DNA from: an uncultured Bacilli bacterium
GTDB lineage: Bacteria; Bacillota_I; Bacilli_A; RF39; UBA660
DNA: 32,000 nucleotides
Assembly: GCA_934097105.1 (NCBI GenBank)
Contig: CAKONI010000003.1
Location: 3,609-35,608 of the forward strand
Reading direction: 5' to 3'
The position numbers and the translations under genes were made by a program. The notes beneath the pieces were generated by a model that did no database searches, had not been told where the DNA came from, and worked only from the letters and a program-made list of their open reading frames with translations. Below, in pieces: positions 11,598 to 28,345 of the stretch; position 1 is the first letter of the stretch, and each line of letters begins with the position of its first letter.

Positions 11598-13265
11598 TTA
11601 ATTTCTTTTTTTTAAATTATCCTCTATTTCATCAAAGTATTTATCTAATATATCTATATTGTTATTGAATAGTTCCATAAATTTTAAAATGGTAAATTCT
11701 GCTTTAAAGGTTAGTTTTCCTTCGTAAATATCGCTAAATATTATTTTACTGTCTTGGAATGTTTCTCCTGGCATGACTTTGTAATTACCATGGGAAATGG
11801 AGTTTCTAATTCCTTCGATGATGCTTTTATTTTTTATATATAGTTCTCTGTTATTGTAATATTTAAGTTTATTTTCTAGGTTTTTAATATCCTTTTTTAT
11901 AGTTTCCATGTCATTACATATTTTAATTAAGTTATTTTTAATTGTTGCTTTTGCTTTTTGGTTTTTTGCTTGAGAGATGTTGCAATAGTTATTTAAGTTA
12001 TTGTTATAACGTGCTATAAGAGTTAATAGTCTTTTGTTTAAAGATTTTAGTTTAGTATCTATTTCGGAATAGAAACTGTCATTATTATCATTTTTGATGA
12101 TACTATTATCATCAAATTTTAGTTTGGAGAAATCAAGTCCCTTCCCATCATTGTTTTTATATATTTTTTCTAGAGGAATACTGAAAAGGCTATTAAAGAC
12201 ACTGATAAGGGATGCAACTAGATTATCGTAGTTTATATAAAAACTTCCCCCATATTTTTTTGCTAGGGAATCTACTATAGAATTTAGATTGGTGGAACCA
12301 CTTTTGGAAATTTCTTCAATTATGTAAAGATTGGTAAGATTTGCAAGTAAGGGATTAAATTCATTGTAGGATGATTCTATTTTTCTTTGAACTTCATTTG
12401 TAATGGTTGATACTTGATTGTCGTAGGTGTATCTTTCTTGAGTAAGTATAGTATTTTGGATTAAGGGGATAAGTTCCATAATACTTTTGTACTTGTTCAT
12501 TTTATAATAGTCAGCTTTTAATATATATCCATTTTCTTTATATTCTTTTCTTAAATTTTGTATGCTATTAAAGTCCATATTAGTGGTATTTTTTAATGTA
12601 TTTAGTTTTTTATTGAACTTATCTATTTCATATTTTTCTAGAAAATTGTTATCTTCTCGGGATAAATTAAAGTTAATGTTTGTACAATTGTTTATGACAT
12701 GTTTAATTTCTTCTGTGGATGTGATTTTTTTTGGTTTTTTGTCTTTAGAGATTTCATTTACAGTTATGTTTCTAGAATAGTTTTTAGTTTTTGTATAGAA
12801 AAAGTTATTACGAAGAGATGTGATTATAAATTTGGAAAGTTTATTAATATCGATTGAGATGTTTGTGTTTTCGACGTTAATAATTACTTCTTCTTTATCA
12901 AAATCTATTAAAAAATCTCCATGAGCAATTTTGTTTCTTAAGGTGGCTACGAGAGTTGAGCCATCTTTAAATTCATAGTTATCTATCATATAACCAGATG
13001 CCGTTTTTTCGGAAATTATAGATACACTTTTTTCTAATGAATCATTATATAGTTTGGATTCATAATTTAAGTTTCCGGTATTTTCTACGATATTTTCTTT
13101 AATACTCAAGAATATATTAGAGATTGCTCCCATTTTAGCAGCGCATAAAAACCTTTTTTCTGTTATATAATTTGGATGATTAATTTCATATAGATTATTT
13201 AACATAAAACCTACAAATTCTTTTGTGCCTAAATAATAATTTGCAACAAATTTCAAGTAGTCCAT
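11598..13265 (-). CDS. Single-chain protein with two HEPN-type Rx4H motifs (putative RNase-type toxin or defence effector)
   Basis: 555 aa from the ATG at 13265. Motif 1 is TLRNKIAHGDF (R..H codons at 12921-12938). Motif 2 is GIRNSISHGNY (11790-11807). Both fit R-N-x-I-[AS]-H-G-[DN]-[FY] and lie about 375 residues apart. No signal peptide or TM segment. The TTG at 13310 used by the ORF track is the -35 box of the gene's own promoter. Confidence 0.5.
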   Translation of the reverse strand: MDYLKFVANYYLGTKEFVGFMLNNLYEINHPNYITEKRFLCAAKMGAISNIFLSIKENIVENTGNLNYESKLYNDSLEKSVSIISEKTASGYMIDNYEFKDGSTLVATLRNKIAHGDFLIDFDKEEVIINVENTNISIDINKLSKFIITSLRNNFFYTKTKNYSRNITVNEISKDKKPKKITSTEEIKHVINNCTNINFNLSREDNNFLEKYEIDKFNKKLNTLKNTTNMDFNSIQNLRKEYKENGYILKADYYKMNKYKSIMELIPLIQNTILTQERYTYDNQVSTITNEVQRKIESSYNEFNPLLANLTNLYIIEEISKSGSTNLNSIVDSLAKKYGGSFYINYDNLVASLISVFNSLFSIPLEKIYKNNDGKGLDFSKLKFDDNSIIKNDNNDSFYSEIDTKLKSLNKRLLTLIARYNNNLNNYCNISQAKNQKAKATIKNNLIKICNDMETIKKDIKNLENKLKYYNNRELYIKNKSIIEGIRNSISHGNYKVMPGETFQDSKIIFSDIYEGKLTFKAEFTILKFMELFNNNIDILDKYFDEIEDNLKKRN

Positions 13266-13281
13266 TGATATCACCATCAAG

Positions 13282-13310
13282 ATGATATCATAAAATTGCT
13301 TAGATGACAA
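13282..13310 (-). promoter_or_regulatory. Sigma-A promoter of the dual-HEPN gene
   Basis: Minus strand reads TTGTCA (13310-13305), 17-nt spacer, TATCAT (13287-13282), then GGTGA Shine-Dalgarno (13275-13271) and ATG at 13265. Confidence 0.55.
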
Positions 13311-13597: not shown

Positions 13598-15262
13598 TTA
13601 TTTTTTTATAAATATTGCTTTTATTTTATGATTTGCTTTTATGTTTTTGAAGGTATATTTTGTAGTTGTTTTTACTTTTTTTCCATCTACGTATAAAGAT
13701 TTTATTTTATATCCTTTGTTAGGTGTAATTTTAATTGTTAAGTTTGTTCCATAATTTACGGTTTTTCCTTTTGTTATATAACCTTTTCCTTCTTTTGTTG
13801 TTGTTATTTTGTATGTGTTAATCATTTTTTTCGCTTTGTTGTAATAGGAATTATATATATTTTTAACTTCTTTTATACTGGTTGCTTTATTTATTTTGTT
13901 AATTCCTTCGTTTACTATTGGTTTTACTTTCTTTTGATTGTATTTTTTATTATTTAAAAATGCTTTTAGATAACCGATATATTTATTTTTAGCGGTTTTT
14001 AGTTCTTGTTTTAAGGTAGGAATGTCTTTGAGTATTCCTTCTAGATTAATAACGAAAAATTCGGAAACTTCAAATTCATAAATGGCATTTTCATAATATT
14101 CTTGGGCTACTTCAAGTATGTATTTAATTCTATAATAATTGTATCCAGAATATTTGCTTGAGTCTAAATAGTTAAGACTTATCTTGTATACTTCATTTTG
14201 AAGTCTTTGTTTGCTGGCATTAGAAAGTTTTTTAAATTTAATACCTGTTACTTTTATTAAATTGTCTTTGGCATTTTCAAATATATTTTCTAATTCACTA
14301 ACGGAATCTGATGAATAAATTTCGGCACAGGCATCATAAAGGATGTCTACTGCTTCTTGGTTTTCTTCTCCTGTTGGTACATAAACACTATAGTAATAAT
14401 AGTCTTGAAGCAAAGAAGTAAAGCTATCTTTTATATCATATACTTCGTTATTGGTATAGATTTTTTTATATAAATCTATATCTCTATATTTATATTCTTT
14501 TCCATTAAGTCTCCATATAATTTCATCATATGTTTCGCTTTCTTCTTGTAGTGTATATTTGTTTTTAGTATTTTTTGGACTAATTCTGTTTGTATGTGCT
14601 TTTGTTTTATCATATTCATAAATAGCGCTATCATAACTAAAATTTAAGTCTACATCAGAAATGTTTTCAGTGAAAATTACAAGTGCTTTGGCATTGGCAT
14701 TTGCTAGGTTTGAATAATCAGAGACGTTATTATAATTATCATAGATTTCTTCTTTTAAACGGTCTATTTTACTTTTGTAATAGTCGTTGTAACCATTAAA
14801 ACTTAAGTTTTCAAAGGCAAGATCTATATTGAGTATTGCTCTTTCTTTTATATCCTCAAAGTTTGTTTTTTCTTTTACAACTTCATAGTTAAAGTCCATT
14901 AGTGATGCTAGGTATAACTGTTTTTGATAAATAGTTTCATTATATTCAATAATTCCGTATGGTAATAGTTCAGTGTCAATTATATCTTCATAAACGACTG
15001 CATTATTTATAGTTTCCATTAATTGATTATAGGAATCATCTATTAGTTTTTTGATTTCATTGGTATATTTGATGTTTTGTGATTCATCATATAGTTCATC
15101 TATTCTTTCACTTAATTTTTGTTTTATATAATCAAGGTTATTATCAACCATAAATGGTCTATAGGTTTTTGATACTAATGGAGTACTTTCTTTGGCGAAG
15201 ACATTAAAGGGAAATATTGTAATTAGAAGTGCAATTACTAGTAATAAACTTAATTTTTTCAT
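13598..15262 (-). CDS. Secreted protein of unknown function with a C-terminal InlB-B-repeat-like beta domain
   Basis: 554 aa. Signal peptide MKKLSLLLVIALLITIFPFNVFA. Long Tyr/Asn/Glu-rich helical region. The last ~70 aa (YKITTTKEGKGYITKGKTVNYGTNLTIKITPNKGYKIKSLYVDGKKV...KIKAIF) resemble Listeria/Bacteroides-type B-repeat domains, judged from memory. The start lies 4 nt after the S8 stop. Confidence 0.5.
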   Translation of the reverse strand: MKKLSLLLVIALLITIFPFNVFAKESTPLVSKTYRPFMVDNNLDYIKQKLSERIDELYDESQNIKYTNEIKKLIDDSYNQLMETINNAVVYEDIIDTELLPYGIIEYNETIYQKQLYLASLMDFNYEVVKEKTNFEDIKERAILNIDLAFENLSFNGYNDYYKSKIDRLKEEIYDNYNNVSDYSNLANANAKALVIFTENISDVDLNFSYDSAIYEYDKTKAHTNRISPKNTKNKYTLQEESETYDEIIWRLNGKEYKYRDIDLYKKIYTNNEVYDIKDSFTSLLQDYYYYSVYVPTGEENQEAVDILYDACAEIYSSDSVSELENIFENAKDNLIKVTGIKFKKLSNASKQRLQNEVYKISLNYLDSSKYSGYNYYRIKYILEVAQEYYENAIYEFEVSEFFVINLEGILKDIPTLKQELKTAKNKYIGYLKAFLNNKKYNQKKVKPIVNEGINKINKATSIKEVKNIYNSYYNKAKKMINTYKITTTKEGKGYITKGKTVNYGTNLTIKITPNKGYKIKSLYVDGKKVKTTTKYTFKNIKANHKIKAIFIKK

Positions 15263-15266
15263 ATTA

Positions 15267-17816
15267 TCACCTGTAAACCTTTCCGCTTATATTTGAATAA
15301 GTTCCTACTAATCTTTTTCCGTTTATTGTTTTGTATCCGGCAACTTTATAATAGTATGTTTTCTTTTTTGTTACTTTTTTGTCATTATAGTATAGTGTTT
15401 TATTAGAACTAATTCTTTTTATTAATTTATATCCAGAATTTTTGCTGGTGGATCTATAGATAAAGTATCCATCTGCACTTGGAATTTTACTATAAGAAAC
15501 TTTGATGTATCCTTTTTTGTTATATAGTGATAAAGTTGTTTTTGGAAGTGTTGGTTTTATGCTTATAACATTAGAATAACCAAATACTTTTTTACTATTA
15601 TATCTTGCTTTTACTCTATAGTAGTAAGTAGTATTCATATTTAATTTTTTATCTGTGTAATAATTATAATTGTCTTTTGTTGTATATATAACTTTGTATG
15701 GTCCATTTTTTGAAGTTGCTCTTTCGATAATATAGTTTTCTGCAACATAAATTTTGCTCCATTTTATGCTGGCTGTATTGTAGGTGTTTCCGTTAGTTTT
15801 AAGACTATATATTGAGCCTTCGTAGTTATTTCTACCTGTGTAAAGTTTAATTGTTTTTGTGGCCTTTACTCCGTTATCTGATGCTTTCACTGTTGCGGTT
15901 ATGTAGGTATAGCCTGCTCTTTTGGCAGTTACTTTTCCGTTTTGATCGATAGAGGCTACTCTTGGATTTGTACTTTCCCAGATAATAGTTGGTTCATAAG
16001 AAAGTTTTTTACCATAGATTCCTGTTACTTTGGTTTTGTAGGTATAACTTTCTCCATTTAGTAATTTACTTATTGGATTTATGAATTCAACTTTTTTAGG
16101 TAGTTCTCTTACTGTAACATCGAAACTATCAGTTAAAGTACCGTCATAATTTTTAACAGTAACTGTTGTTGTCCCTGCATTTTTGGCTACTAGAGCATAA
16201 CCAAGTAGGTTTTCTTCTATGTCTGCAACTTTTCTGTTTGATGATGAGTAGTAAATTTCTGGACTTTTTAATGTTTCTGGTGCGTATGATGCTGAAAGGT
16301 TGAATATATCACCAATGTAAAGTAAATTTTTTGTTTCAGCAAATTTAAGTTTAGTTAATTGTTCAGTGGCTTTTACTGTAACGGTAGTACTTGTTTTTAA
16401 GCCATCACAAGATGCTGTAATTGTGGTTGTCCCTTCGTTTATACCTCTTACGATTCCATTTGAGTCTACTGTGGCAATTCTTGGATTTGCGCTTTCCCAA
16501 GTAACTTCTTTTAGGGCTGTTGCAGGCCTTGTTAAAACTTCAAGTGAAATATCATCATCAAGTGGTACTATTTCTTCTTCTGTTTTCATTTTAATTGATG
16601 TGACTGTGCTATTTTTGCTTGCCATTTTGGCTGCTAAAACGGCATCTTTCGCATTAATGATACCATATGCTGTATAGTTGTTGAATACATTTTGAGATGT
16701 TGTGCCACAAAGGATGTTGTAAACTTGGCTAGGGGTTAAATTTGGATTTGCATCTAGCATTAGGGCTGCAACGGCACTGACAATTGGTGATGCCATAGAA
16801 GTTCCGCTCATTCTTCCGTATATATCTCCTGGAAGTGTGCTATAAATGTTATTTCCAGGTGCAGTTACGTCTTTATATTTACCATAATCTGACCAGTAGT
16901 TTGCTTTATCGTATTCGTTTGAGGAATTAACGCTAATAACTTCTTTAAAATCGCTTGGTGATGTGAAACTATTACTAGCATTGTTTCCTGCTGCTGCAAC
17001 TAAAACAACGCCTTTATTGTATGCATCTTTAACTGCTGCTTCGATTACTCTATCTCTTCCTAGTCCTCCGAAACTCATGTTGATTACTTTTGCACCATTT
17101 TCTGTTGAGTATTTTATTGCATGAGCGATATCAGCACTATATAAAAATCCTTCTTCTGATGTTCCAACTACCATGACTTCAACTAAGTCGTTATTAAATC
17201 CTGAGGCAACTCCAGCACTACCGAGTTTGTTACCGTAGGTTGCACCGATAATTCCTGCTACGTGGGTTCCATGTTCTTCAGTATCACTATCGGATGTAAG
17301 TACTTCTCCCCCACTGGTTATAGGGTAGTTGTCTCTATTTATTAAGTTTTTTTGGAGATCTTCATGGTAAACATCAACGCCAGAGTCAATAACTGCTACC
17401 TTAGTTTTTCTAGGTGTAGTAATAAGTCTCCAAGCGTCTAATGCTCTAAGTTTGTCAAACCAATAACTAGGTTTTGTGTCTATTATGGTGTTTTCTGAAA
17501 GTTTGTATTTATAGTTTGGCCCTGCGTACAAAACTTTACTGCTGTTTGAAAAGTCTTTGATGGCTTCTTTTAAAGTAGTATCATCAGAAATTGTGGCTTG
17601 TACAATTTTACTTTCATCTACTTTTATTATATTTTCTAAAGAGGCATCATTTCCTTCGACTATTTTATTAATAGTTTTATTTGAGGTGTCATCTTTAAAG
17701 ATTACAATAACTTCGTCTTTTTTATACTCCTTTCCTTTTAAGATATCATCTGCAAAAACAATAGGTGTATTAATAGCACATATGGCTATTAATAAAAATA
17801 AAATTTTCTTTCTCAT
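15267..17816 (-). CDS. Secreted subtilisin-family (S8) serine protease with Big_2 and FN3 domains
   Basis: Signal peptide is present. Catalytic triad contexts are VAVIDSGVD, HGTHVAGIIG and GTSMASPIVSA (Ser codon at 16797-16799). Three Big_2-like units follow (ATVDSNGIVRGINEGTTTITA, VADIEEN...AGTTTVTV, ASIDQNGKVTAKRAGYTYITATV). Two FN3-like units end in YYYRVKA and YYYKVAG. The second ATG (17816) is preferred for Shine-Dalgarno spacing; the ORF track starts at 17822. Confidence 0.85.
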   Translation of the reverse strand: MRKKILFLLIAICAINTPIVFADDILKGKEYKKDEVIVIFKDDTSNKTINKIVEGNDASLENIIKVDESKIVQATISDDTTLKEAIKDFSNSSKVLYAGPNYKYKLSENTIIDTKPSYWFDKLRALDAWRLITTPRKTKVAVIDSGVDVYHEDLQKNLINRDNYPITSGGEVLTSDSDTEEHGTHVAGIIGATYGNKLGSAGVASGFNNDLVEVMVVGTSEEGFLYSADIAHAIKYSTENGAKVINMSFGGLGRDRVIEAAVKDAYNKGVVLVAAAGNNASNSFTSPSDFKEVISVNSSNEYDKANYWSDYGKYKDVTAPGNNIYSTLPGDIYGRMSGTSMASPIVSAVAALMLDANPNLTPSQVYNILCGTTSQNVFNNYTAYGIINAKDAVLAAKMASKNSTVTSIKMKTEEEIVPLDDDISLEVLTRPATALKEVTWESANPRIATVDSNGIVRGINEGTTTITASCDGLKTSTTVTVKATEQLTKLKFAETKNLLYIGDIFNLSASYAPETLKSPEIYYSSSNRKVADIEENLLGYALVAKNAGTTTVTVKNYDGTLTDSFDVTVRELPKKVEFINPISKLLNGESYTYKTKVTGIYGKKLSYEPTIIWESTNPRVASIDQNGKVTAKRAGYTYITATVKASDNGVKATKTIKLYTGRNNYEGSIYSLKTNGNTYNTASIKWSKIYVAENYIIERATSKNGPYKVIYTTKDNYNYYTDKKLNMNTTYYYRVKARYNSKKVFGYSNVISIKPTLPKTTLSLYNKKGYIKVSYSKIPSADGYFIYRSTSKNSGYKLIKRISSNKTLYYNDKKVTKKKTYYYKVAGYKTINGKRLVGTYSNISGKVYR

Positions 17817-17843
17817 ATCCATACCTTCTTTCTATCTAAGAAA

Positions 17844-17901: not shown

Positions 17902-17919
17902 AAAAAATAGGATCCTATT
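17902..17919 (-). terminator. Weak terminator candidate after the AAA/VWA operon
   Basis: 14-nt perfect palindrome AATAGGATCCTATT (17906-17919), followed on the minus strand by T6. The effective stem is short. Confidence 0.3.
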
Positions 17920-17958: not shown

Positions 17959-19698
17959 TCATAATCTACTATTTTTCTCAGAGAAACTGGACTTTTGTAA
18001 TTCATTTTCTGGTATATTTATAACCTTGCCACCTCTTGGATATAATTGTTTATCCCCAAAAACAATCCATATTATATCAAGATTTTTATTAGGCACTTTA
18101 CCCCAGCCGTCAGTAAAAATGATTTTATTTTCAGTTCGTCTAGAAAAAGCATCAACCGCAACACTAAAATCAGTGCCACCACCACCTAAAAATTCCATAT
18201 CTTCTATATCTTTTTCACTTCTAATATCATTAAAACCATAAAATTTTGTATCAAAGCAACCGACTTTTAACTTAGAGTGTTTTAATATATTTTTACACTC
18301 CATAAGAAAATTACGTAATAATTCTTCATCAATAGAACCACTAGTGTCAAGAACAATTTCAGTCTCTGCAAAAGGTAACTCTTCCAATCTTGGAACTATA
18401 ACCCCATCTTCAATCTCAGCATTTCTGTAAGACCAATCAAGATCATACTTAGTAGCCTCTTTAAGTAAATATCTCCAGTCTAATAAAGGTTTAGATTTTC
18501 CAGATGAGTCAACATCTCTAGTATCACTACTAGTTAAATCACCATAACTCATTGGTTGTGATTCAATTTCCTTTTTTAAATCTTCAAGGGCTTTTTTCTT
18601 TTCTCTTCTATTTTCAGAGAAAGCACCTTTTTCACCCATTTCTTTTATTTTTTTCTTTAGTTCCTCTATACTACTATTTTCAGAATTTTTATCTTCATTT
18701 GAATTTTTTTCATTTTCTTCAAGTTCTTTTAAAGCATCATCCCATAGACTATGAGTATCGTGACCAACATCTTTTCTTTTGTTATTAGATGATTCGGATA
18801 AGTTTGAATTATCTTTTGATCTATTCTCATTTTTGGTTCCATCTTGTGATTTTGAATCTTTATTTTGTGGATCAGAATTCCCATTTTGCGAATTTGAATC
18901 TTTGTTTTGTGAATCAGAATCTCCATTTTGTGATTTTGAATCTTTATTTTGTGGATCAGAATTCACATTTTGTGATTTTGAATTCTTATTTTGTGAATCA
19001 GAATTTTCATCTTGTGAATTTGAGTCTTTGTTTTGTGGATCAGAATTCCCATTTTGTGATTTTGAATCTTTGTTTTGTGAATCAGAATTTTCATCTTGTG
19101 AATTTGAATCTTTGTTTTGTGAATCAGAATCTCCATCTTGTGAATTTGAGTCTTTGTTTTGTGAATCAGAATCTCCATCTTGTGAATTTGAATCTTTGTT
19201 TTGTGAATCAGAATTTTCATCTTGTGAATTTGAATCGTTGTTTGGTGAATCAAAATTTTCATCTTGATTATCATTTTCATTATTACTTTGATTTTGTTTT
19301 TCTTTCTCTTCTTCTATTAATTTGTCATAAAATTCTTCAGCATCATAATTTATAGCATCAGGCATGTCAACCCCATTTGGCATAATTGGAAGGCCATCCC
19401 TTTTCAAAAGTTGGTTTATAACTGCATCAGTTGCAACATTCCAAAAATACCTATCCTTATCTTTACTTCTAGGAACATGATCAAAAGCAATATGACAAAC
19501 TTCATGTGCGAGTACAAAAACTTGCTCATTGGTGTCCAAACTACTTAGAAAATCAGGATTATAATAAATATTTTTACCATTAGTAGACGCAGTGGATATG
19601 TTGTTATCCTCAATATAATTGGTATTAGCAACTATACTACCAAAGAAAGGATATTTAACAAGCATTTTTCTTTTTAAAGCACCAATATCATAACTCAT
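17959..19698 (-). CDS. HExxH putative metallopeptidase domain, Ser/Asp/Asn/Gln repeat linker, VWA-like domain (DUF2201-type architecture)
   Basis: 579 aa. N-terminus has PFFG, LAHEVCHIAFDH (HEVCH codons at 19492-19506) and NVATDAVIN. The C-terminus has the MIDAS-like motif VLDTSGSI (18334-18348), GGGTDF and IFTDGWG. About 150 aa of 14-aa repeats lie between the two domains. Confidence 0.75.
   Translation of the reverse strand: MSYDIGALKRKMLVKYPFFGSIVANTNYIEDNNISTASTNGKNIYYNPDFLSSLDTNEQVFVLAHEVCHIAFDHVPRSKDKDRYFWNVATDAVINQLLKRDGLPIMPNGVDMPDAINYDAEEFYDKLIEEEKEKQNQSNNENDNQDENFDSPNNDSNSQDENSDSQNKDSNSQDGDSDSQNKDSNSQDGDSDSQNKDSNSQDENSDSQNKDSKSQNGNSDPQNKDSNSQDENSDSQNKNSKSQNVNSDPQNKDSKSQNGDSDSQNKDSNSQNGNSDPQNKDSKSQDGTKNENRSKDNSNLSESSNNKRKDVGHDTHSLWDDALKELEENEKNSNEDKNSENSSIEELKKKIKEMGEKGAFSENRREKKKALEDLKKEIESQPMSYGDLTSSDTRDVDSSGKSKPLLDWRYLLKEATKYDLDWSYRNAEIEDGVIVPRLEELPFAETEIVLDTSGSIDEELLRNFLMECKNILKHSKLKVGCFDTKFYGFNDIRSEKDIEDMEFLGGGGTDFSVAVDAFSRRTENKIIFTDGWGKVPNKNLDIIWIVFGDKQLYPRGGKVINIPENELQKSSFSEKNSRL
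18823..19266 (-). repeat. In-frame 42-nt tandem repeat (21-nt sub-period), about 10.5 copies
   Basis: The unit TTGTGAATCAGAATTTTCATCTTGTGAATTTGAATCTTTGTT recurs with few substitutions. It encodes DS(N/K)SQ(D/N)(E/G)(N/D)SD(S/P)QNK. No stop codons occur in several frames, which explains the stacked ORFs in the track. Confidence 0.9.
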
Positions 19699-19702
19699 AG
19701 TA

Positions 19703-20077
19703 TTATTCCTTTATATGTGCTACTAACGAATAAATTTCTTCATTAATAGTATTTTTGTTTATTTCATTTGCCGTAATGATTATTACACAATTTTTTGGTA
19801 ACTCTAAAGTCCCTACTTTTCTATATTTCAATAATTCTAAAAACTTGACTTGTTCATCCTTTGAAATAGAATCTATTCTATCTATTACTAACAATTTCGC
19901 ATCACTATTACTTTTTATTAGTCTAAACCATTCAGGTTCATTTATATCTAATAACTCTTCACTACTTACATCTGCTGAAATAACAACACTGTCAGGTATA
20001 TCAAAAAGAAAATCTTCCAAAATAGGCGCTACATTATTACTTATATATGTTGATAATAACTCTCTCTTTTCTTTCAT
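19703..20077 (-). CDS. Small P-loop-less AAA+-like protein (Walker-B and sensor-1 half only)
   Basis: 124 aa. KLLVIDRIDSISKDEQVKFLELLKYRKVGTLELPKNCVIIITAN aligns with KLHIVFLDELTNALPSIQGIAFNIVLDKEVNGIWKLPSNARIVAAGN of the upstream ATPase. No GxxxxGK[ST] motif is present, and DE is replaced by DR. The start overlaps the upstream stop (TAATG). The stop lies 4 nt before the next start. Confidence 0.5.
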   Translation of the reverse strand: MKEKRELLSTYISNNVAPILEDFLFDIPDSVVISADVSSEELLDINEPEWFRLIKSNSDAKLLVIDRIDSISKDEQVKFLELLKYRKVGTLELPKNCVIIITANEINKNTINEEIYSLVAHIKE

Positions 20078-22038
20078 TATTTTCTCACTCCATTTTCCAT
20101 ATTAGATTCCAAAATCTTTTCCATTTTTTCTTCATCACCATGACACCACAAAGCATCAAAAATCTTTCTAAACTCTGGCCCCATTTCAAAAGCAAAATTT
20201 CTTGCTTTACTAAGATTTTCATCATCTACTCTAGAAAGACCCATCACTGTAGCATATCTTTCTGAGGTATTAAGCATTTCGATATCTCCCTTACTATAAT
20301 TATCATTTAGCACATCTTCAAGTGTTATAACCCTTTGTCTACAAAATGCTACGAATTCTTTTGTTATCTCTTCTCCAACTAAACTTCTTAACATCTCAGG
20401 ATTCTCTGTACTATAAAGCATTTTTGATGCCATTTCCCATTTCCTAGGATCAGCATTTGGTTTCTCACCATCATACTCACTTCTTAATACTTTATCTCTT
20501 TTAAATGCTATAAATGAATAAATTGCTGGATGTATATTATGCGTACTTGCCCACTTTAGCCAGTTTTCTACTGTTGTTTTTATATAAACATGTGCAAATC
20601 TATTAAACAAAGGCTCTGCCATTTGATTTGCTGCCAAACTATCTTTCATATCATTTCCCGCTGCCACTATTCTAGCGTTTGATGGAAGTTTCCAAATTCC
20701 ATTTACTTCTTTATCTAAAACAATGTTAAATGCTATACCTTGAATACTAGGAAGTGCATTAGTAAGTTCATCTAGAAATACTATATGTAACTTATCGGGT
20801 TCATTCTCACATTTTTCATTTATCTTTTTAAGCCAAGATGGCATAACATCTATCATCTCACCAGTTGTAGCATTATATACACTTTTACCATTTAAACTTT
20901 CTGGTGTAGCATTACGAAGATATATAATTACACAATCAGAATCAAATTGCTTAACTCTAGCACTCTTTCCCTCAGAAGAAGCCCCATGCAAAAATACTGG
21001 AATATCACTGTCAATTGCACCTTTGATCATTTCTTCCTCACTTATCTTATTAAAGTTAAGGTTATATGGATTCCTCATTCTTTCTCTCCTTTTTTCATTT
21101 TCTTTTTTCATTTTTTCATTTTCTTTTTTCATTTTTTCTATTTCTTCTCTTTGCATTTTAAAATTTTCTTTAGCTTGCTCCATTTCTTCATTTGTTAGTT
21201 CTTCATCACCACTCTCTTGTTCTTTTTTCTCTTTTAAATAATCATCAAAAGACATTGTTTCTCCAGAAACTTTTGTTATCTCATTTGAAGGTATTATTTC
21301 ATTAATGAAATATCTATTTAAATACATTTTCACATCACTATTTTGATAGTTGTTTCTGATGCTATCTACTTTTATTCCTGATACTAATACATCTTTGCTT
21401 ATAAAATTATTTTCATTTTCATCGTAAATCCACTTTATTGGTGAAACTGAAAACCATATATAATTATACGAATCAGCAGATTCTCCATTAGAAAAAATAG
21501 CTTTTCTTGATTTAGAATTTGGAACTACTCTTATATACTTTTTACCATCAAATTCATATTCAGAATAATAGTCAGGTAAAAAACCATCACAATCATCAAA
21601 TTGAGTTGAGTCCACTGTATAAGACTTATTTGTTTTTGCCAAGCTACCATTTTGATAAGAAAACTCTAAAAAATCATTCAAATAACCATCAACTATTTCT
21701 TGAGGATATTCTCCATATGAAACTTCCTTAAGACCATCAACCATCGAAATATTAGCCTCATCATCAGGTATATTTGATATGACAGGTCTAATTCCACAAT
21801 AACCTTGATTATCATGAAGATTCGTAAAAGATCCTTCTAAACTATGAACCCAGTCATACTCTTTATTTTTATTCAAAGTAAGATAAAAACTTGTGCGAAA
21901 TTTATCGCCATATGTAAACTCTTTAATACCAAGAAATCTAGCAAAATCAGAAGTATTGCTTTCCTTATTTACCATTTTCCTTATAAAGTCTGACCCTCCT
22001 TGTTTCTCGTTAGGTAAACTAATTTCAATATTATTCAT
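20077..22038 (-). CDS. MoxR-like (AAA_5-type) ATPase with an N-terminal ~250-aa extra domain and a Glu/Lys coiled-coil linker
   Basis: 653 aa. Walker A is HGASSEGKS (20962-20985), Walker B is HIVFLDELT, and sensor-1 is RIVAAGN. The N-terminal region carries YGEYPQ, GIRPV, IKWIYDE and SDVKMYLNRYF, which I recall from DUF6273-type Firmicutes modules (unverified). AAGAGGTG Shine-Dalgarno precedes the start. Confidence 0.7.
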   Translation of the reverse strand: MNNIEISLPNEKQGGSDFIRKMVNKESNTSDFARFLGIKEFTYGDKFRTSFYLTLNKNKEYDWVHSLEGSFTNLHDNQGYCGIRPVISNIPDDEANISMVDGLKEVSYGEYPQEIVDGYLNDFLEFSYQNGSLAKTNKSYTVDSTQFDDCDGFLPDYYSEYEFDGKKYIRVVPNSKSRKAIFSNGESADSYNYIWFSVSPIKWIYDENENNFISKDVLVSGIKVDSIRNNYQNSDVKMYLNRYFINEIIPSNEITKVSGETMSFDDYLKEKKEQESGDEELTNEEMEQAKENFKMQREEIEKMKKENEKMKKENEKRRERMRNPYNLNFNKISEEEMIKGAIDSDIPVFLHGASSEGKSARVKQFDSDCVIIYLRNATPESLNGKSVYNATTGEMIDVMPSWLKKINEKCENEPDKLHIVFLDELTNALPSIQGIAFNIVLDKEVNGIWKLPSNARIVAAGNDMKDSLAANQMAEPLFNRFAHVYIKTTVENWLKWASTHNIHPAIYSFIAFKRDKVLRSEYDGEKPNADPRKWEMASKMLYSTENPEMLRSLVGEEITKEFVAFCRQRVITLEDVLNDNYSKGDIEMLNTSERYATVMGLSRVDDENLSKARNFAFEMGPEFRKIFDALWCHGDEEKMEKILESNMENGVRK

Positions 22039-22118
22039 ACAAACACCTCTTAAGATAATAGTATCATAACTATAGATATTTGTATATTAATTAAAATTTA
22101 TTTTACAGAACTTTACAT

Positions 22119-22160
22119 AAAAAAAGAAATAACTAAGTTAAAATATTCTTAATTATTTCT
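22119..22160 (-). terminator. Intrinsic terminator of ftsY-ylxM
   Basis: 13-bp stem AGAAATAATTAAG / CTTAGTTATTTCT with one mismatch (22148-22160 with 22125-37) and a 10-nt loop. T7 follows on the minus strand. The ylxM stop codon (22133-22135) lies in the 3' arm of the stem. Confidence 0.65.
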
Positions 22161-22423
22161 TTTAGTTTTTCATCTTCGATAATATTTAGTATCTTCTTTT
22201 CCTTTTCATATAATTTGAGTTTGCACTCAAAATCCTTAAGTTCATCACTAACTTTTTTTAATCTTTTATGAATAGCATTCCTAGATATTCCCATATTAGA
22301 TGAAATTTCTCCTAGTGATAAATTATCAAAATAATAACTTTTAAAACAATCTCTATCCTTTTCATCAAGAAGTTCTTCATAATAATCAAAAAGAATAGTT
22401 AAATAAACATTTTCATCCATCAC
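22133..22423 (-). CDS. ylxM: YlxM/UPF0122 SRP-associated HTH protein
   Basis: 96 aa. LFDYYEELL..K.R......YYFDNLSLGEI resembles B. subtilis YlxM (LFDFYQSLLT.KQR...SLYYLDDLSLGEI). It overlaps the ftsY stop. The start is either GTG at 22423 or ATG at 22420 (TGATG overlap). Confidence 0.8.
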   Translation of the reverse strand: MMDENVYLTILFDYYEELLDEKDRDCFKSYYFDNLSLGEISSNMGISRNAIHKRLKKVSDELKDFECKLKLYEKEKKILNIIEDEKLKEIIKNILT

Positions 22424-23424
22424 ATCATATCCTTAAAAAGACCATATATATACTTTTCAATATCAAATGTTTGAAGATCATTATAGGTTTCACCGAAGCC
22501 TACATATTTTACTGGAATGTCGACTTCATCTTTTATAGCAAGTACAATACCACCTTTTGCAGTACCATCTAGTTTAGTAAGAACTATTCCTGTTATGTTT
22601 GTTACTTCTTTAAATGTTTTGGCTTGACTTATACCATTTTGTCCAGTGGTAGCGTCGATTACAAGTAATGTTTCGTGGGGTGCATCACTAATAAAGTTTG
22701 ATGTGACTCTATTGATTTTTTCAAGTTCTTTCATTAAATTAACTTTATTTTGCAAACGTCCAGCAGTATCTATTAAAACGATATCGAAGTTTTCTTCTTT
22801 TGCTTTTTCAAGACCATTATAGACAACTGAAGCTGGATCTTTTAATGATTCATCTCCTACAAAGGAGGCACCGGTTCTATCGGCCCATTCACGTAGTTGA
22901 TTGACAGCGCCTGCTCTAAAGGTGTCTGCTCCAATCATGAGTACTTTTTTACCTTTTTCGATTTCTTTTTTTGCTATTTTGGCAATAGTGGTTGTTTTAC
23001 CAACTCCGTTTACTCCTACGAAGAGGATAACAGTTGGACCTTCTTTTGCGTAATTAATTTTATCTATTAGAATATCGCCATCAACATAAATGATAAAAAG
23101 TTCATCAACTATTATTTCTTTAAGCATTTTTGGATCTTCTATTTTCTCGCTTTTTACTCTATCACGTAAGCGATCCATAAATTTCATAACAGTATTAACA
23201 CCAAGATCTGCCATAATTAATATTTCTTCTAGTTCGTAAAAGAATTCTTCTGTTATTTTATTATATTTATTTGTTATATTAATAAGTTTAGATACGAAGT
23301 TATCTCTTGTTTTAGTAAGACCCTTATCATATACTTTTACTTCATTTTCTAATTTTGAATTGTTACTACTTGTGGTTTCTTTTTCTTTGGAAAAAGCATT
23401 TTTAATTTTATTAAATAATCCCAT
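22420..23424 (-). CDS. ftsY: Signal recognition particle receptor FtsY
   Basis: [32 protein letters not shown]. The MGLFNKIK start at the ATG at 23424 is preferred. The GTG at 23433 lies inside the GGTGA Shine-Dalgarno. A TGA-TATAAT extended -10 lies at 23444-23452. Confidence 0.92.
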
Positions 23425-23451
23425 ATAAATCACCCTATATAAGATTATATC

Positions 23452-23744: not shown

Positions 23745-24902
23745 CTATCTACTATACCCCATAGTTTGATTTTGAATACTTTCGTAAGTTGGTTCTACAA
23801 CTGGATTTACGGTAACTCCTTCATTTAATTCACCTGCTAAAGAATTAATCTCTGCTTCTGAGATTCTTTTTTCTTCATTAATTGTTTCTGTATTACTTGA
23901 ACTAGAAAATTTTGCTTTAATTTTTTCTATTCTATTTTTTAATCCTTCTTTAATTCTGGTTATAAAACTAACTTTTTTTCTTTTTTCAGGAGTTAAATGA
24001 TTCTTTATATAATCCATTTGATACAATACATCTTGCATTTTATTTGGTTCTTGTGTTTGGTTATTTGAAATGTTGTTTGCTCTTAAGTTATCAGATAAAT
24101 TTGGAATGTCTGCTACTTCATTTTCGTTTGTTTTTAATACTATGTTTTCTTGTGGGACAGGACCATTGACTACTCTATAGTTAAATTTATCATTACTAAC
24201 TGTATGAATTCTTGCCTGTCTAAGTTCAGACTTTACTTCTGGACTATTTTCTTTTTCAGTAGGTTTTTGCTCTTCTGGTTTATTTTCTTTTACAACAGGT
24301 TCTTGCTCTTCTGGTGTATTTTCTTTTACAACAGGTTCTTGCTCTTCTGGTTTATTTTCTTTTTCAGTAGGTTTTTGCTCTTCTGGTTTATTTTCTTTTA
24401 CAATAGGTTCTTGCTTTTCTGGTTCGTTTTCTCTTTCAACAGTTTTTTCTTCTTCTGGTGTATTTTCCTTTTCGATGGGTTTTTGTTCTATTTCTAGAAC
24501 TCCTCTTTTTGAAAGCCTTTTCATTGATTTTAGAGCAAAGTTTATACGAAATTCAAGTTGTTCAATGTCAAAAGCAATCCTTTCTTTTTCTCTATCATTA
24601 GCAGGCTCTTTTTCTTTTAGCATTTCTTTTTCAGTATTATATGTATTGTAGTAATCATAGTAATACATAAGTTCAGTTACATAATGGTTTTCTGTTATAT
24701 AGTTATCATATTCCATTTCGCTTTTACCTAAAGCTGCTGAAACTGGTCCGATAACGTCTATTCCTTTTTCCCATTCTTTACTTTTTACTGCGTCAACTGC
24801 TTTTTGTGCATATTCAACCTCAAGTTTTTTTAATCTTTCTTCTACTTTGAATGAAACAATTTCTAAATTAACTAGTTTTAAAAATTCATTAATATTTTCC
24901 AT
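23745..24902 (-). CDS. Paralogue family member P3 (shared N-terminal module, 36-nt acidic repeats, unique C-terminus)
   Basis: 385 aa. N-terminus (INEFLKLVNLEIVSFKV...EVEYAQKAVD...W.KG...KEPANDREK...) is homologous to the N-termini of P1 and P2. No signal peptide or TM segment. Confidence 0.6.
   Translation of the reverse strand: MENINEFLKLVNLEIVSFKVEERLKKLEVEYAQKAVDAVKSKEWEKGIDVIGPVSAALGKSEMEYDNYITENHYVTELMYYYDYYNTYNTEKEMLKEKEPANDREKERIAFDIEQLEFRINFALKSMKRLSKRGVLEIEQKPIEKENTPEEEKTVERENEPEKQEPIVKENKPEEQKPTEKENKPEEQEPVVKENTPEEQEPVVKENKPEEQKPTEKENSPEVKSELRQARIHTVSNDKFNYRVVNGPVPQENIVLKTNENEVADIPNLSDNLRANNISNNQTQEPNKMQDVLYQMDYIKNHLTPEKRKKVSFITRIKEGLKNRIEKIKAKFSSSSNTETINEEKRISEAEINSLAGELNEGVTVNPVVEPTYESIQNQTMGYSR
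24231..24482 (-). repeat. In-frame 36-nt tandem repeat, about 7 copies
   Basis: TTTTCTTTTACAACAGGTTCTTGCTCTTCTGGT(G/T)TA units encode KEN(K/T)PEEQ(K/E)P(T/V)(E/V). Confidence 0.85.
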
Positions 24903-24917
24903 AATTTATCCTCCATC

Positions 24918-25796
24918 TTAAAGTTTTTTTCCAGAACTGTAATGTTTATAGGCTATACCAGCCAATGGTGCTACTACAAATACTGGGTTTGCAATTACAA
25001 GGGCTGCAGTTATAGCCCCTAGCGCTACTATTGCAGCGACTGTTTTTGAATTAATTTTGCTATTTAGGGTTGGTCCTGCTACTCCCATTTTTTTCGCTGT
25101 TTTCTTTTCAGGTTTTAATGTATTGTCCTCTTTTTGTTCTTCTGGTTTAGTAGCAGTTCCTGTAGAAGTATCTTTTTTTTGTTCAGGTTCTTTTTCTTCT
25201 TGATTTTCTTTTTCCTCATCTTGTTTTTCTTCATCCTGTTTTGCTTCGTCTTGTTTCGTTTCATTTTGATTTTCGTTATTTTTTTCTTTGTTTTCTGTTA
25301 TTTCATTATCATCAGTATTACTTATACTATTTGCTTTGTTTTCTTTTTCTTGATCTTTTTTATTTTCTAAATCATCGGTATTGAATCTACTTCTATTTTT
25401 AGTTAATGATTTTAGTCTTTTAATTATGAAATTTTGCCTATTTTTAAGTTCTTCAATACTAAATTCATTTCTTGATTTTTCTCTGTCATTAGCAGGTTCT
25501 TTTGCAAGTAATGCTTTTAGTTTTTTTTCGTGTTCTTGATATTCTGCATAGTATTTTTTCATTTCTTCTACTTCTTTGTTTTGTGTTATATATTCATCTA
25601 AATCTTGTTGTTTCTCTTCAAGTTTTTGTTCAAATATTTTGATAGCCTCTGAGCCTTTATCCCATTTTACATTTTTAACCTGATCTAGGTCTTTTTGTGC
25701 ATATTCAATCTCAACTTCTTTTAGTTTTTTGTCCACTTTGTATGAAGTTATATCTAAATTAACTTTTTTTAAAAATGCTTCTAAGTCGTTATTCAT
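24918..25796 (-). CDS. Paralogue family member P2 (shared N-terminal module, acidic region, C-terminal TM tail anchor)
   Basis: 292 aa from the ATG at 25796 (MNNDLEAFLKKVNLDITSY), chosen by homology to the P1 and P3 starts. KQDE(A/E) repeats. C-terminal hydrophobic stretch TVAAIVALGAITAALVIANPVFVVAPLAGIAY. Confidence 0.6.
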   Translation of the reverse strand: MNNDLEAFLKKVNLDITSYKVDKKLKEVEIEYAQKDLDQVKNVKWDKGSEAIKIFEQKLEEKQQDLDEYITQNKEVEEMKKYYAEYQEHEKKLKALLAKEPANDREKSRNEFSIEELKNRQNFIIKRLKSLTKNRSRFNTDDLENKKDQEKENKANSISNTDDNEITENKEKNNENQNETKQDEAKQDEEKQDEEKENQEEKEPEQKKDTSTGTATKPEEQKEDNTLKPEKKTAKKMGVAGPTLNSKINSKTVAAIVALGAITAALVIANPVFVVAPLAGIAYKHYSSGKKL

Positions 25797-25827
25797 AGGA
25801 TCCATCGCCCCTTTCAATTACTTGCAT

Positions 25828-25856
25828 ATTATATCACAAAATCATAAATTTTACAA
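25828..25856 (-). promoter_or_regulatory. Sigma-A promoter with extended -10 for P2-P3-small gene
   Basis: Minus strand reads TTGTAA (25856-25851), 17-nt spacer, TGa-TATAAT (-10 at 25833-25828). Confidence 0.55.
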
Positions 25857-25912
25857 GTCTAATGTCAAAAAATCATATTGATTCAAAAATTAAGTGAATA
25901 TATTTTTAATTA

Positions 25913-28345
25913 TTACCTTGATCTACCTGTACTTATTTCGTTATCATATAGCATTTCTTCGTATTCTAACATTTTTTCTCTTTCTTTATATGGTACTCTT
26001 GCCATTGTTTTCTTTTTGCCTATTTCTTTGTCAACAACACTGCAATATGCCATTGTAGCACCAGTACTTATTACTGTTGTTAATAGGTCACTGCCAAGTC
26101 CATCAAGTTGAGGAACTTCTGTAGTTTTCAATATTTCGCCATCTTTGTAGACTTCAAGTATTCCATTATTAAATTTGGTTACGGCGTCAGGATTTTTTAT
26201 TATGTAGTCCATTGAATCAACAGTTGAAGATAAGTCAAATTGAGGATTATTTGCTTGGTATTCTCTTAATTGTTCTATTGCGTTTTCATATAATTTAGTT
26301 TGGTTTTTGTTTACTTCACTTGCAACTTCAGCAATTTTATTTAAGTATTCACTATCGCTTATCCTTTTATCTTTTAGGTCATTCACAGCATCAGTAAACT
26401 GTGAATTCATGCTTTCTATTTCATTATGTGAAGTTTGATGATTAATTTTGTCTGCAGCCCAATAATCGGTACTATTCATATCGTAAGTGTGTCCATCTAA
26501 TGTTGCTGCTTGTCTTTCTCTTATATCAACGGCTCCTGCTTGATTAGCATATGAATTTGCTGTCATACCTTTACCAAAGTCATCTCTTTTTGATGTGATA
26601 TCATTTCCTATAGAATGTATTTGATCTTCTACATCATTTAATTTTTGATTTATTTCTGCAACTAAGTTTGGATTGTCTATTAAGTGTGTAACGATTCCGT
26701 GTATAGATGAAACTGCAGCTGTTCCAAGAGCAATTGTACCCATAATGTCTCTGATATGTGTGTCTTGACTATAATCAAGTAATGTTGCCATTGGTGTATA
26801 ACTTCTTTTGCCTGTTGAAACTTCTCCTACAAATCTTTTTTTGTCGTATGATGTGTTTTCTGCTTCAAGTCTTTGTCTTTCAATGAATGAACTTACTGCT
26901 AATTCGTCATTTCCTTCTTCGATTGCTTTTTTAAAGTCTGCTGATAAAATCGCTTCTTGATCCATAAGCTTTTGATCATTTCCATGTTTTACAGCATCAG
27001 CATATCCGACATAGTTCATTCCTTTTCCGATAGTAGTTGCCCTTACTATTTCTTCAAAGCCATGGCTTCCGCCACCTATATAATAATTTGCTTGGTCTTG
27101 ATTACTAGTAAACTCTTTTAAAAGTTCTGCTTTTCCGTCATATAAATTTGCTCTTTCTCCTTCAAGTTGTATTCTTTTTTCTTCAGTTAAATCTCCTTCT
27201 AATTCTTTGTTTATTCCTTCAATAAGTAAGTAATCACCGGCGATTTTAGAGAAAATTTTCTTGTTTGTCATGTTTAAAGCATCTATTTTTTCTTGGCAGT
27301 ATTTTTTCATTCTATTTACAATTGGTGCTGTGAATGCTTCCGGATACATTGATTGTTTGAAGAATGACGCTGTTCCATCTTTTAAAATTGTTTCTAAGTC
27401 TTTTTCTGGTAAATTATTAAGTCTTTCTTTTAAACTATTTATTTTGTCTATTTGTTCTTGTTTTACTGTTAACCCACGTATATTACAGACAATCTTATTC
27501 ATCATTGTTCTAAAACTTTTACTGACCCCTGCAATATTATATTTTAGATTTCCAGTATGAACGTTTTTTTCAAATTCATCCCTTATTTTTATTTTTCTTA
27601 ATGTTAGTTTATTATAAGCCCTTTTATCTTTTACCTTGAAATCAAGTCCTCTATTTAATTCAGCCATGATGACTTCTATTGTCCTAGGTCTTGATTGTAG
27701 ATCTTTTTCAATTTCACTTTCTGGATCTTCTATTTCAGGATCATCTCTTTCTGGATTATCCTTTTCCGGATCATCTCTTTCTGGATTATCCTTTTCCGGA
27801 TCATCTCTTTCTGGATCATCCTTTTCCGGATTATCTCTTTCTGGATCATCCTTTTCTGGATTATCTCTTTTTGGATCATCCTTTTCAGGTTCTTCCTTTT
27901 TTGGATTTTCTTTTTCTAGATCATCAGTGTTAAATAAACTTCTGTTTTTTGTTAATGCCCTTAATCTTTCTATTATAAATTTTTGTTTAAATTTAAGTTC
28001 TTCAATACTAAACTCATTTCTTGATTTTTCATTAGCATTAGCAGGTTCTTTTTCAAGTAATGCTTTTAATTTTTTTTCACATTCTTGATATTCTGCATAG
28101 TACTTCTTTATTTCATCCATTTCTTTATTTTCATATAAGAAATCCTCTAAGTCTTTTTGCTTATTTGCAAGCACCTCTTCTAGTACTTGAACAATGTTTG
28201 ATCCTCTTTCCCATGTGTGCTCTTTTGTGGCGTCTACATCTTTTTGTGCATATTCAATGTCAGCAAGTTTAAGTGTTCTGGTTGTTTCATAAGAAACTAT
28301 GTCTAGATTGACTCTTTTTAAAAATGCTTCTAATTCAGTATTCAT
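25913..28345 (-). CDS. Paralogue family member P1 (shared N-terminal module, pentapeptide acidic repeats, ~590-aa unique C-terminal region)
   Basis: 810 aa. N-terminus MNTELEAFLKRVNLDIVSY...IEYAQKDVD...W.RGS...YYAEYQECEKKLKALLEKEPANANEKSRNEFSIEELK. I do not recognise the C-terminal region. Hydrophobic patches are IMGTIALGTAAVSSIHGIV and LLTTVISTGATMAYCSVV. Confidence 0.6.
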   Translation of the reverse strand: MNTELEAFLKRVNLDIVSYETTRTLKLADIEYAQKDVDATKEHTWERGSNIVQVLEEVLANKQKDLEDFLYENKEMDEIKKYYAEYQECEKKLKALLEKEPANANEKSRNEFSIEELKFKQKFIIERLRALTKNRSLFNTDDLEKENPKKEEPEKDDPKRDNPEKDDPERDNPEKDDPERDDPEKDNPERDDPEKDNPERDDPEIEDPESEIEKDLQSRPRTIEVIMAELNRGLDFKVKDKRAYNKLTLRKIKIRDEFEKNVHTGNLKYNIAGVSKSFRTMMNKIVCNIRGLTVKQEQIDKINSLKERLNNLPEKDLETILKDGTASFFKQSMYPEAFTAPIVNRMKKYCQEKIDALNMTNKKIFSKIAGDYLLIEGINKELEGDLTEEKRIQLEGERANLYDGKAELLKEFTSNQDQANYYIGGGSHGFEEIVRATTIGKGMNYVGYADAVKHGNDQKLMDQEAILSADFKKAIEEGNDELAVSSFIERQRLEAENTSYDKKRFVGEVSTGKRSYTPMATLLDYSQDTHIRDIMGTIALGTAAVSSIHGIVTHLIDNPNLVAEINQKLNDVEDQIHSIGNDITSKRDDFGKGMTANSYANQAGAVDIRERQAATLDGHTYDMNSTDYWAADKINHQTSHNEIESMNSQFTDAVNDLKDKRISDSEYLNKIAEVASEVNKNQTKLYENAIEQLREYQANNPQFDLSSTVDSMDYIIKNPDAVTKFNNGILEVYKDGEILKTTEVPQLDGLGSDLLTTVISTGATMAYCSVVDKEIGKKKTMARVPYKEREKMLEYEEMLYDNEISTGRSR
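27716..27916 (-). repeat. In-frame 15/30-nt tandem repeat, about 13 pentapeptide units
   Basis: GGATCATCTCTTTCT / GGATTATCCTTTTCC alternate and encode (E/K/R)(K/R)D(D/N)P units (PEKDDPERDNPEKDDPERDDPEKDNPERDDP...). Confidence 0.85.

Follow-up and report, generated by a model that had tools for sequence, protein, structure and literature searches.

A DUF2201 peptidase-VWA and MoxR-type ATPase operon of gut Bacilli and its relatives with a retroelement-diversified N-terminal domain

Ternary conflict systems that combine VMAP with MoxR-vWA components and are associated with diversity-generating retroelements (DGRs) were described by Kaur et al. 2020 (PMC7159879) and Doré et al. 2024 (PMC10907252), and DGR-diversified 'antigen sensors' have been proposed for the MoxR-vWA and STAND systems of multicellular bacteria (PMC7159879, PMC10907252). 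Pairs of a MoxR ATPase and a metallopeptidase-vWA protein (DUF2201_N/DUF2201, COG3864-type) are also present in jumbo and N4-like phages, and a chaperone role was proposed for the jumbo-phage pair (Iyer et al. 2021, PMC7824862). Here, we analyzed a three-gene operon in a 32-kb stretch of DNA, hereafter the window, from an uncultured Bacilli bacterium (RF39; UBA660; assembly GCA_934097105.1, contig CAKONI010000003.1). The operon (trio) occupies positions 17959–22038 on the minus strand, on which all features described below also lie unless another contig is named. Gene 1 (20077–22038) encodes a 653-residue protein with an N-terminal binding domain, a coiled-coil linker and a MoxR-like AAA+ ATPase. 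Gene 2 (19703–20077) encodes a 124-residue fragment of an AAA core without Walker A, and gene 3 (17959–19698) encodes a 579-residue protein with a zincin-like peptidase, an acidic linker and a VWA domain. Among described systems, the DGR-linked VMAP/MoxR-vWA ternary systems come closest to this operon, and in our best reading the family found here is a variant of them.

The trio family shares with the VMAP/MoxR-vWA systems the combination of a MoxR-type AAA+ ATPase, a vWA partner and a peptidase, as well as a DGR-hypermutated domain that has been proposed to act as a cytoplasmic sensor. However, the variable domain, which in the published systems is located at the C-terminus of the vWA protein (C-type-lectin, FGS) or in a separate target, is here found at the N-terminus of the ATPase. 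The peptidase of the VMAP/MoxR-vWA systems is a trypsin or caspase, whereas the trio contains a DUF2201-type zincin that is fused to the vWA protein. The VMAP protein, the TIR domain and the adaptor domain of the published systems are not present here. The third gene of the trio codes instead for the 124-residue AAA fragment, which is set apart from VMAP by the published description, and such an extra gene for a Walker-A-less AAA fragment does not occur in VMAP/MoxR-vWA systems. The hosts also differ, as the published systems are found in multicellular cyanobacteria, actinobacteria or gammaproteobacteria and the trio family in gut Bacillota. No hydrophobic segment was detected in any of the three proteins, so the system is cytoplasmic. 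We infer, at a probability of roughly 55%, that the trio functions as a cytoplasmic sensor-ATPase-peptidase system which recognizes variable ligands.

Evidence for this comes from the related operons, in a subset of which a DGR rewrites the binding surface of the gene 1 N-terminal domain. The cassette in these loci is arranged as an Avd-like gene, a template repeat (TR), a reverse transcriptase (RT) gene and then gene 1. The RT, of 338–372 residues, is encoded directly upstream of gene 1 in loci L004, L008, L019–L022, L036, L037, L042 and others, and all six RTs that were checked contain the DGR signature [ILV]GxxxSQ and the YMDD motif; the match of the Avd-like protein to bAvd is weak (1.4e-5, under the cut-off). 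The TR, which is 80–103 nt long and located upstream of the RT, has a second copy, the variable region (VR), inside the gene 1 N-terminal domain at approximately residues 72–117. Several observations mark this as a working DGR. All 58 of the TR/VR mismatches in L008, L020, L021, L022 and L042 fall on TR adenines, which make up a fraction of 0.28–0.34 of the TR. Five near-identical copies of gene 1 from different assemblies differ almost only in the VR, with 11 variable columns per 30 nt, and the changes sit at template-adenine positions, while the TR is identical in the three of these loci whose upstream sequence includes it. Similarly, the gene 1 products of L004 and L037 differ at one of 618 residues outside the VR and at eight of 28 inside it. 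The 3′ end of the VR is a GC-rich block, GGCGCCGTCCGCCCAGCTTTGC, in a background of ∼30% GC. Between the five aligned genes and the three templates, this block has a single fixed difference, which is the pattern expected of an initiation of mutagenic homing (IMH) sequence and IMH*. Since the N-terminal surface used for binding is rewritten by the DGR in these relatives, the family appears to be built for unpredictable, fast-changing ligands. The trio had been proposed from the window alone to be a sensor-ATPase-protease switch; the sensor part of this idea is strongly supported by the finding that the relatives' N-terminal domain is a DGR target, which is not visible from a single window and which alters the choice of systems for comparison.

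The DGR is present in only part of the family. In the 53 loci with at least 2.5 kb of sequence upstream of gene 1, this region contains an intact RT in 10, RT fragments only in 5 and none in 38. RT-bearing loci belong mostly to one shallow clade of the ATPase tree. The window lineage is placed together with L049, a locus with an RT and with a TR/VR pair that has decayed. Tandem arrays of gene 1 are found in several loci that lack an RT, with up to six copies in L038. Arrays were located at 206–14498 of L038, where genes 2 and 3 are interleaved, at 7695–17157 of L049 and at 5019–11944 of L056. In most RT-less arrays the ATPase parts are 92–100% identical and the N-terminal domains 68–90%, and the differences cluster at the VR-equivalent. 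In the L049 array, four gene 1 copies are 99–100% identical, including the variable region, beside the decayed TR.

Two further observations concern the DGR cassettes themselves. Just upstream of the Avd-like gene, six of them (L008, L019, L021, L022, L036 and L042) encode a protein of 162–177 residues with no Pfam match (for example at L008 5142–5630 and L019 4949–5437). Its gene is preceded by a pair of small HTH_3 genes in four of these cassettes and by a single helix-turn-helix gene in the other two, and the protein may be an unrecognized DGR accessory or regulator. A second 'RT' upstream in L008, L019 and L036 was rejected as an artifact of single-linkage clustering. The falsely grouped open reading frame (ORF; 292–298 residues, L008 3237–4133 and also in L019 and L036) is unrelated to RT, and its ENV-type motif, in our reading, suggests a cytosine DNA methyltransferase.

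The copy in the window is a fixed-specificity, DGR-less member of the family and represents its less striking form. No RT, Avd or TR was found in the 32-kb window, and a repeat search with the 5′ region of gene 1 gave chance matches only. The VR-equivalent (21775–21876; gene 1 residues 55–88, ...WVHSLEGSFTNLHDNQGYCGIRPVIS) is AT-rich and invariant, being shared without change by the window and three further metagenome contigs (four samples in total), and it contains no counterpart of the GC-rich homing sequence. Across the whole of gene 1, one 21-nt repeat unit and seven substitutions distinguish the window and these three contigs. Of those substitutions that could be assigned to a codon position, nearly all affect the third. 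The 21-nt repeat is located in the stalk of gene 1 (21078–21171) and encodes MKKENEK, the window being one unit longer than contigs L001–L003. The neighbors of the trio are chromosomal (MutS, Fic, SpoIVA, ftsY, ylxM, an S8 peptidase and an Flg_new_2 protein). We conclude from these observations that the window copy is fixed and still maintained under purifying selection.

Homologs of gene 1 number more than 2,200 in a metagenome protein set, and a scan of one genome per species yielded 75 loci, mostly in metagenome-assembled genomes (MAGs) of gut Bacilli, plus a Clostridia set. Some of the gut Bacilli MAGs with the trio have been deposited under Tenericutes or Mycoplasma labels, and the hosts include at least one gut Bacillota MAG of ∼1.5 Mb. 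All three genes are kept in the same order in 57 of the 78 loci analyzed, so the trio is more than a chance arrangement, and genes 1 and 3 are syntenic in 72; the Clostridia-type loci (L061–L082) are without gene 2. Relative to the window, gene 1 is 62–76% identical in the ATPase part and 26–42% identical in the N-terminal part. Beyond the cassette, no neighbor family recurs in more than nine of the 78 loci, and the flanking gene families differ from locus to locus, many of them having ordinary cellular functions. In L014 (3793–11499; CP091726.1, the complete 1.46-Mb chromosome of a Bacilli MAG), genes 1, 2 and 3 are all fragmented and the system is apparently decaying.

Some of the RT-bearing cassettes adjoin mobile-element genes, which code for a VirB4-like ATPase, a CHAP hydrolase, SSB and serine recombinases in L004 and L037 and for a serine recombinase in L022 and L042. 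This setting would fit a tool with which conjugative or integrative elements seize and destroy defense or exclusion proteins of the host, in which case the window copy would be a stranded remnant. The level of identity of the ATPase across very different genome backgrounds also fits horizontal spread. We consider this explanation unlikely. The 38 loci without an RT, the differing flanks with many ordinary cellular functions, and the intact state of the window copy and its conservation in four samples all argue against it, and offense and defense are indistinguishable at the sequence level.

The system that we favor, which recognizes variable ligands in the cytoplasm, would bind them through the N-terminal domain of gene 1 (residues 1–250; 21289–22038). 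This domain is homologous to the DGR-diversified domain of the relatives, with which it aligns at 33–38% identity with a conserved scaffold. Its structural model (pLDDT 76, pTM 0.79, VR region <50) had no match better than E 0.2 in the PDB and BFVD, and for this reason a C-type-lectin fold is not claimed. DUF6273, described as a lectin-like domain that DGRs target in the receptor-binding proteins of gut phages (PMC10743442, PMC11792537), had been named for HMM searches in the sequence-only reading. It was not confirmed at the Pfam threshold: DUF6273 (PF19789) had no match to the window N-terminal domain and matched two of 17 homologs only at E 0.026, and N-terminal domains that were artificially permuted gave sub-threshold DUF6273 matches only. 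A profile search with the domain across 1.84 billion representatives returned 2,669 clusters; among these are proteins in which the domain stands alone, is duplicated in tandem or is joined to DUF4116 or ankyrin repeats. A clearer result than that of the artificial permutants came from the tandem protein P0121, in which positions 5–170 of the 172 positions of DUF6273 were matched with 26.3 bits (cut-off 23.5) across the junction of two copies, which is the expected signature of circular permutation. The sequence comparison thus points to the N-terminal domain as a probable, not proven, circular permutant of DUF6273. If so, the permutation would account for the VR being near the N-terminus here and at the C-terminal end in canonical DUF6273.

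The DUF6273 targets of gut phages (tentaclins, PMC10743442; Faecalibacterium prophage targets, PMC11792537) resemble the trio family's N-terminal domain in being DGR-diversified and in having a VR that ends in ...G[AV]VRP[AV]L. However, in the phage targets, which are extracellular receptor-binding proteins of the virion, the VR occupies the C-terminal end of DUF6273, whereas the domain described here appears circularly permuted, contains an extra β-rich insert and occurs in fusion with a cytoplasmic ATPase. The 'N-terminal VR' targets Ig1/Ig2 (Wu et al., Roux et al.) were considered as a prior description and rejected, since they are phage tail-fiber proteins and do not belong to this family. 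The domain also occurs outside the ATPase context: many proteins of ∼270–350 residues consist of it alone, and P0121 (818 residues) and P0149 (1005 residues) have tandem copies of it joined to DUF4116 or ankyrin repeats in place of the ATPase.

A charged helical linker (residues 251–330; 21049–21288) leads to the AAA+ module of gene 1 (residues 331–653; 20080–21048). The module contains Walker A GASSEGKS (residues 352–359; 20962–20985), Walker B IVFLDE (residues 419–424; 20767–20784) and sensor-1 AAGN (20653–20664), and GASSEGKS, the DE of Walker B, AAGN and many further ATPase residues are invariant in 40 homologs. Residues 333–626 match phrog_1297 'ATPase' (9e-48), and plasmid relatives of gene 1 (25–35% identity) are annotated as MoxR. 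The AlphaFold model of gene 1 is of moderate confidence (pLDDT 68). Its Foldseek matches were headed by the NorQ entries 9qh8, 9qh4 and 9qhg at a probability of 1.0, including entries titled as NorQ-NorD VWA complexes, with dynein AAA and MCM ranking next. Gene 1 had no significant match in Pfam, NCBIfam or PADLOC, and sequence and profile searches against PDB sequences gave nothing useful. Pfam AAA_5 (PF07728) did not match the window protein at E ≤ 0.1, and its homologs matched AAA_5 at 1e-7 to 0.008, mostly under the 22-bit cut-off. By fold, PHROG family and annotation of its relatives, gene 1 is a MoxR-clade ATPase. The earlier description of gene 1 as MoxR-like therefore stands, but its assignment to AAA_5 fails as literally stated because the protein has no significant Pfam match.

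NorQ (MoxR CGN subfamily) is the best structural match of the ATPase, and the NorQ-NorD VWA complexes offer a model for the docking of gene 3. With these as the closest solved structures, the trio could be a housekeeping chaperone pair like NorQ/NorD, CbbQ/CbbO, CobS/CobT or BchI/BchD, which would insert a metal or cofactor into one fixed client or remodel it. The way in which an inactive AAA piece is combined with an acidic linker and a VWA domain recalls BchD and CobT, and the fixed binding domain and housekeeping neighbors of the window copy would suit such a role. Even so, we regard it as improbable. NorQ and NorD serve the maturation of nitric-oxide reductase and there is no such client at the trio, nor is any client gene conserved beside it. 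NorQ lacks the N-terminal binding domain and NorD the peptidase, and a conserved HExxH peptidase is foreign to the known chaperone pairs. In addition, relatives of the trio ride conjugative or integrative elements, and a binding domain that is hypermutated or expanded by paralogs would make no sense for a single fixed client.

On the basis of its sequence, gene 2 is classed as a Walker-A-less paralog of the gene 1 AAA core. It was aligned by hhalign on gene 1 residues 375–464 (probability 67%, E 5e-5) and matches phrog_1297 at 1.7e-5, in agreement with its first description as a P-loop-less AAA fragment. Our reading of the model suggests that it spans the region from β2 and the helix-2 insert via Walker B to sensor 1. 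The protein has no P-loop, and its Walker-B-like segment reads LLVIDRID, with D-x-I-D in place of D-E. A six-residue NGHYxG segment, kept in all 25 other aligned copies, is missing only in gene 2 of the window.

Gene 3 was the only one of the three proteins with a significant result in the Pfam, NCBIfam and PADLOC scans. It matched DUF2201_N (PF13203, 1.7e-29) and DUF2201 (PF09967, 1.5e-13), both over their cut-offs. Together with the zincin-like HEVCH motif (residues 65–69; 19492–19506) and DTSGS (residues 451–455; 18334–18348), these matches bear out the original description of a zincin-like peptidase and VWA protein of the DUF2201 type. All of the motifs quoted in that description (GASSEGKS, IVFLDE, HEVCH and DTSGS) were located. 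The metal ion-dependent adhesion site (MIDAS) of the VWA domain is complete (DTSGS...T...D), with the T at 18166–18186 and the D at 18106–18123. Among 65 homologs of gene 3, HExxH is present in 59 and DxSxS in all. The long repeat linker noted previously is real: a 42-nt tandem repeat of 10.2 copies (18837–19266) encodes the 14-residue repeats of an acidic, S/N/D/Q-rich linker. The number of copies varies between samples of the same species, in which gene 3 has 567–568, 579 or 665 residues (related contigs compared for linker length: L001, 10320–12026; L002, 9103–11100). Across the family the length of gene 3 ranges from 369 to 761 residues, and this variation is, by eye, mostly in the linker.

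Distant relatives of gene 3 are encoded in 600 phage records (∼30% identity over about half of the protein), and the products of genes 1 and 3 both match PHROG families. PHROGs and many phage annotations in RefSeq give the family that matches gene 3, phrog_1314, the label 'HNH endonuclease', which looks like a propagated mislabel. The MoxR and metallopeptidase-vWA pairs of phages have the same two-domain architecture of gene 3 and an adjacent MoxR-like ATPase. However, phage and plasmid relatives match only the ATPase part of gene 1, at ∼25–35% identity, with no sign of the N-terminal binding domain. A phage-derived chaperone-protease for virion assembly, which is the role proposed for the jumbo-phage pair, is a very remote prospect for the trio. 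A search of 2.9 million viral contigs, with invariant motifs as patterns, found a close relative in just one of them, and a phage origin was rejected on this basis. Moreover, no phage structural domains were found in the 10 large window ORFs that were scanned, the matches in phages are limited in identity and extent as given above, and an assembly chaperone would not be expected to carry a DGR target.

The mechanism that we propose for the sensor-ATPase-peptidase system is as follows. Gene 1 would form a MoxR-type AAA+ ring, with a helical stalk on each subunit that holds an N-terminal domain for ligand binding. In the manner of NorD and NorQ, gene 3 would dock on this ring by way of the VWA domain with its MIDAS, and would bring along the zincin-type metallopeptidase on the long, acidic and disordered linker. 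Gene 2 would most likely serve as a non-catalytic adaptor or regulator of the ring. After the N-terminal domain has captured a specific protein ligand, ATP hydrolysis would remodel this ligand or switch the complex, and the tethered peptidase would then cleave the captured ligand or a downstream substrate. The ligands are most plausibly proteins of phages or other mobile elements, and, by analogy with the described conflict systems, the most likely role would be the recognition of invader proteins.

Several points weigh against this proposal. The window copy is located between ftsY-ylxM and genes for secreted proteins and not in a defense island or mobile element, and PADLOC had no match for the three proteins; an association with defense islands or mobile elements, which had been raised from the sequence alone, was thus not found for the window copy, whose neighbors are housekeeping genes. 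It is synteny and the NorQ/NorD analogy only that suggest a physical interaction between the members of the trio. The peptidase is the sole candidate effector. The model of the N-terminal domain matches no known fold, and its view as a lectin-like binder derives from the DGR evidence and the weak DUF6273 link. Finally, since gene 2 has lost the conserved six-residue segment, the window copy could be partly degenerate.

The organization of the operon was found as first described, with three translationally coupled ORFs at exactly the coordinates given and forming an autonomous unit. At the junction between genes 1 and 2, which reads ...AAATAATGAAAG..., the last A of the TAA stop codon is the first A of the ATG at 20077. 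The junction between genes 2 and 3 reads GGAATAA-TACT-ATG, with a gap of 4 nt (TACT) at 19699–19702. Gene 1 is preceded by a promoter-like sequence, TTAATA-16-TATGAT (22090–22063), and by a strong ribosome-binding site, AAGAGGTG (22051–22044), both of which are consensus matches only; the count of promoter-like sites in the region is not above that in shuffles. Both bounding hairpins were confirmed. The downstream one has a 13-bp stem and a T-run (17936–17907, with a tail to ∼17897) and forms a terminator-like boundary, and its earlier span of 17902–17919 was roughly right but too short. The upstream hairpin (∼22116–22163), with a 16-bp AU-rich stem and a U-run, overlaps the ylxM stop codon. 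It folds more stably than shuffled sequences (z = −3.3), and it was not called by a terminator scan that requires GC. It is likely the terminator of ftsY-ylxM and the upstream boundary of the trio unit.

In many Bacillota, ylxM is followed by ffh. In the window, the trio and not ffh stands after ftsY-ylxM (22133–23433 and downstream), so the trio may have been inserted after ylxM or the region may have been rearranged. Directly downstream of the trio, the region 13598–17822 encodes an S8 peptidase of 851 residues, which has Big_2 domains and an N-terminus resembling a signal peptide, and a 554-residue protein with an Flg_new_2 (InlB B-repeat) domain, both of which are likely secreted or surface proteins. 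Five other large ORFs of the window (385, 299, 810, 472 and 570 residues; at 23745–28345, 4420–5838 and 11598–13310) had no Pfam match at 1e-5, and their counterparts in L001 are likewise without domains.

In the papers that were consulted, no description was found of a DGR that targets a MoxR-like ATPase with a DUF2201 partner, and large DGR surveys may contain such loci unremarked. We tentatively suggest, as a possibility at clearly less than even odds, that the family is an undescribed programmable machine for intracellular recognition and proteolysis in gut Bacillota. In such a machine, a DGR-rewritable domain would be fused to a MoxR-type unfoldase ring that feeds or switches a tethered zincin, and the copy in the window would be a receptor derived from this system and fixed in the germline. 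Previous discussion of cytoplasmic sensors diversified by DGRs has concerned large multicellular bacteria, in which the variable lectin domain is located on a vWA or STAND component. The family described here differs in three respects, namely the position of the variable domain on the ATPase itself, the partner, which is the widespread and uncharacterized DUF2201 peptidase-VWA protein, and the frequent occurrence in human and animal gut Bacillota, in part on conjugative elements. For the DUF2201/MoxR pair, which is also present in hundreds of phages, the family would provide a first strong functional clue, namely action on a specifically recognized ligand. The DGR-driven, paralog-array and fixed forms offer matched natural states of one system for experiments, and if the recognize-remodel-cleave model holds, the module would provide a natural scaffold from which retargetable proteolysis could be built. 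If our proposal is true, immunity by hypermutated 'antigen sensors' would extend from large multicellular bacteria to gut Bacillota, including small-genome lineages and conjugative elements.

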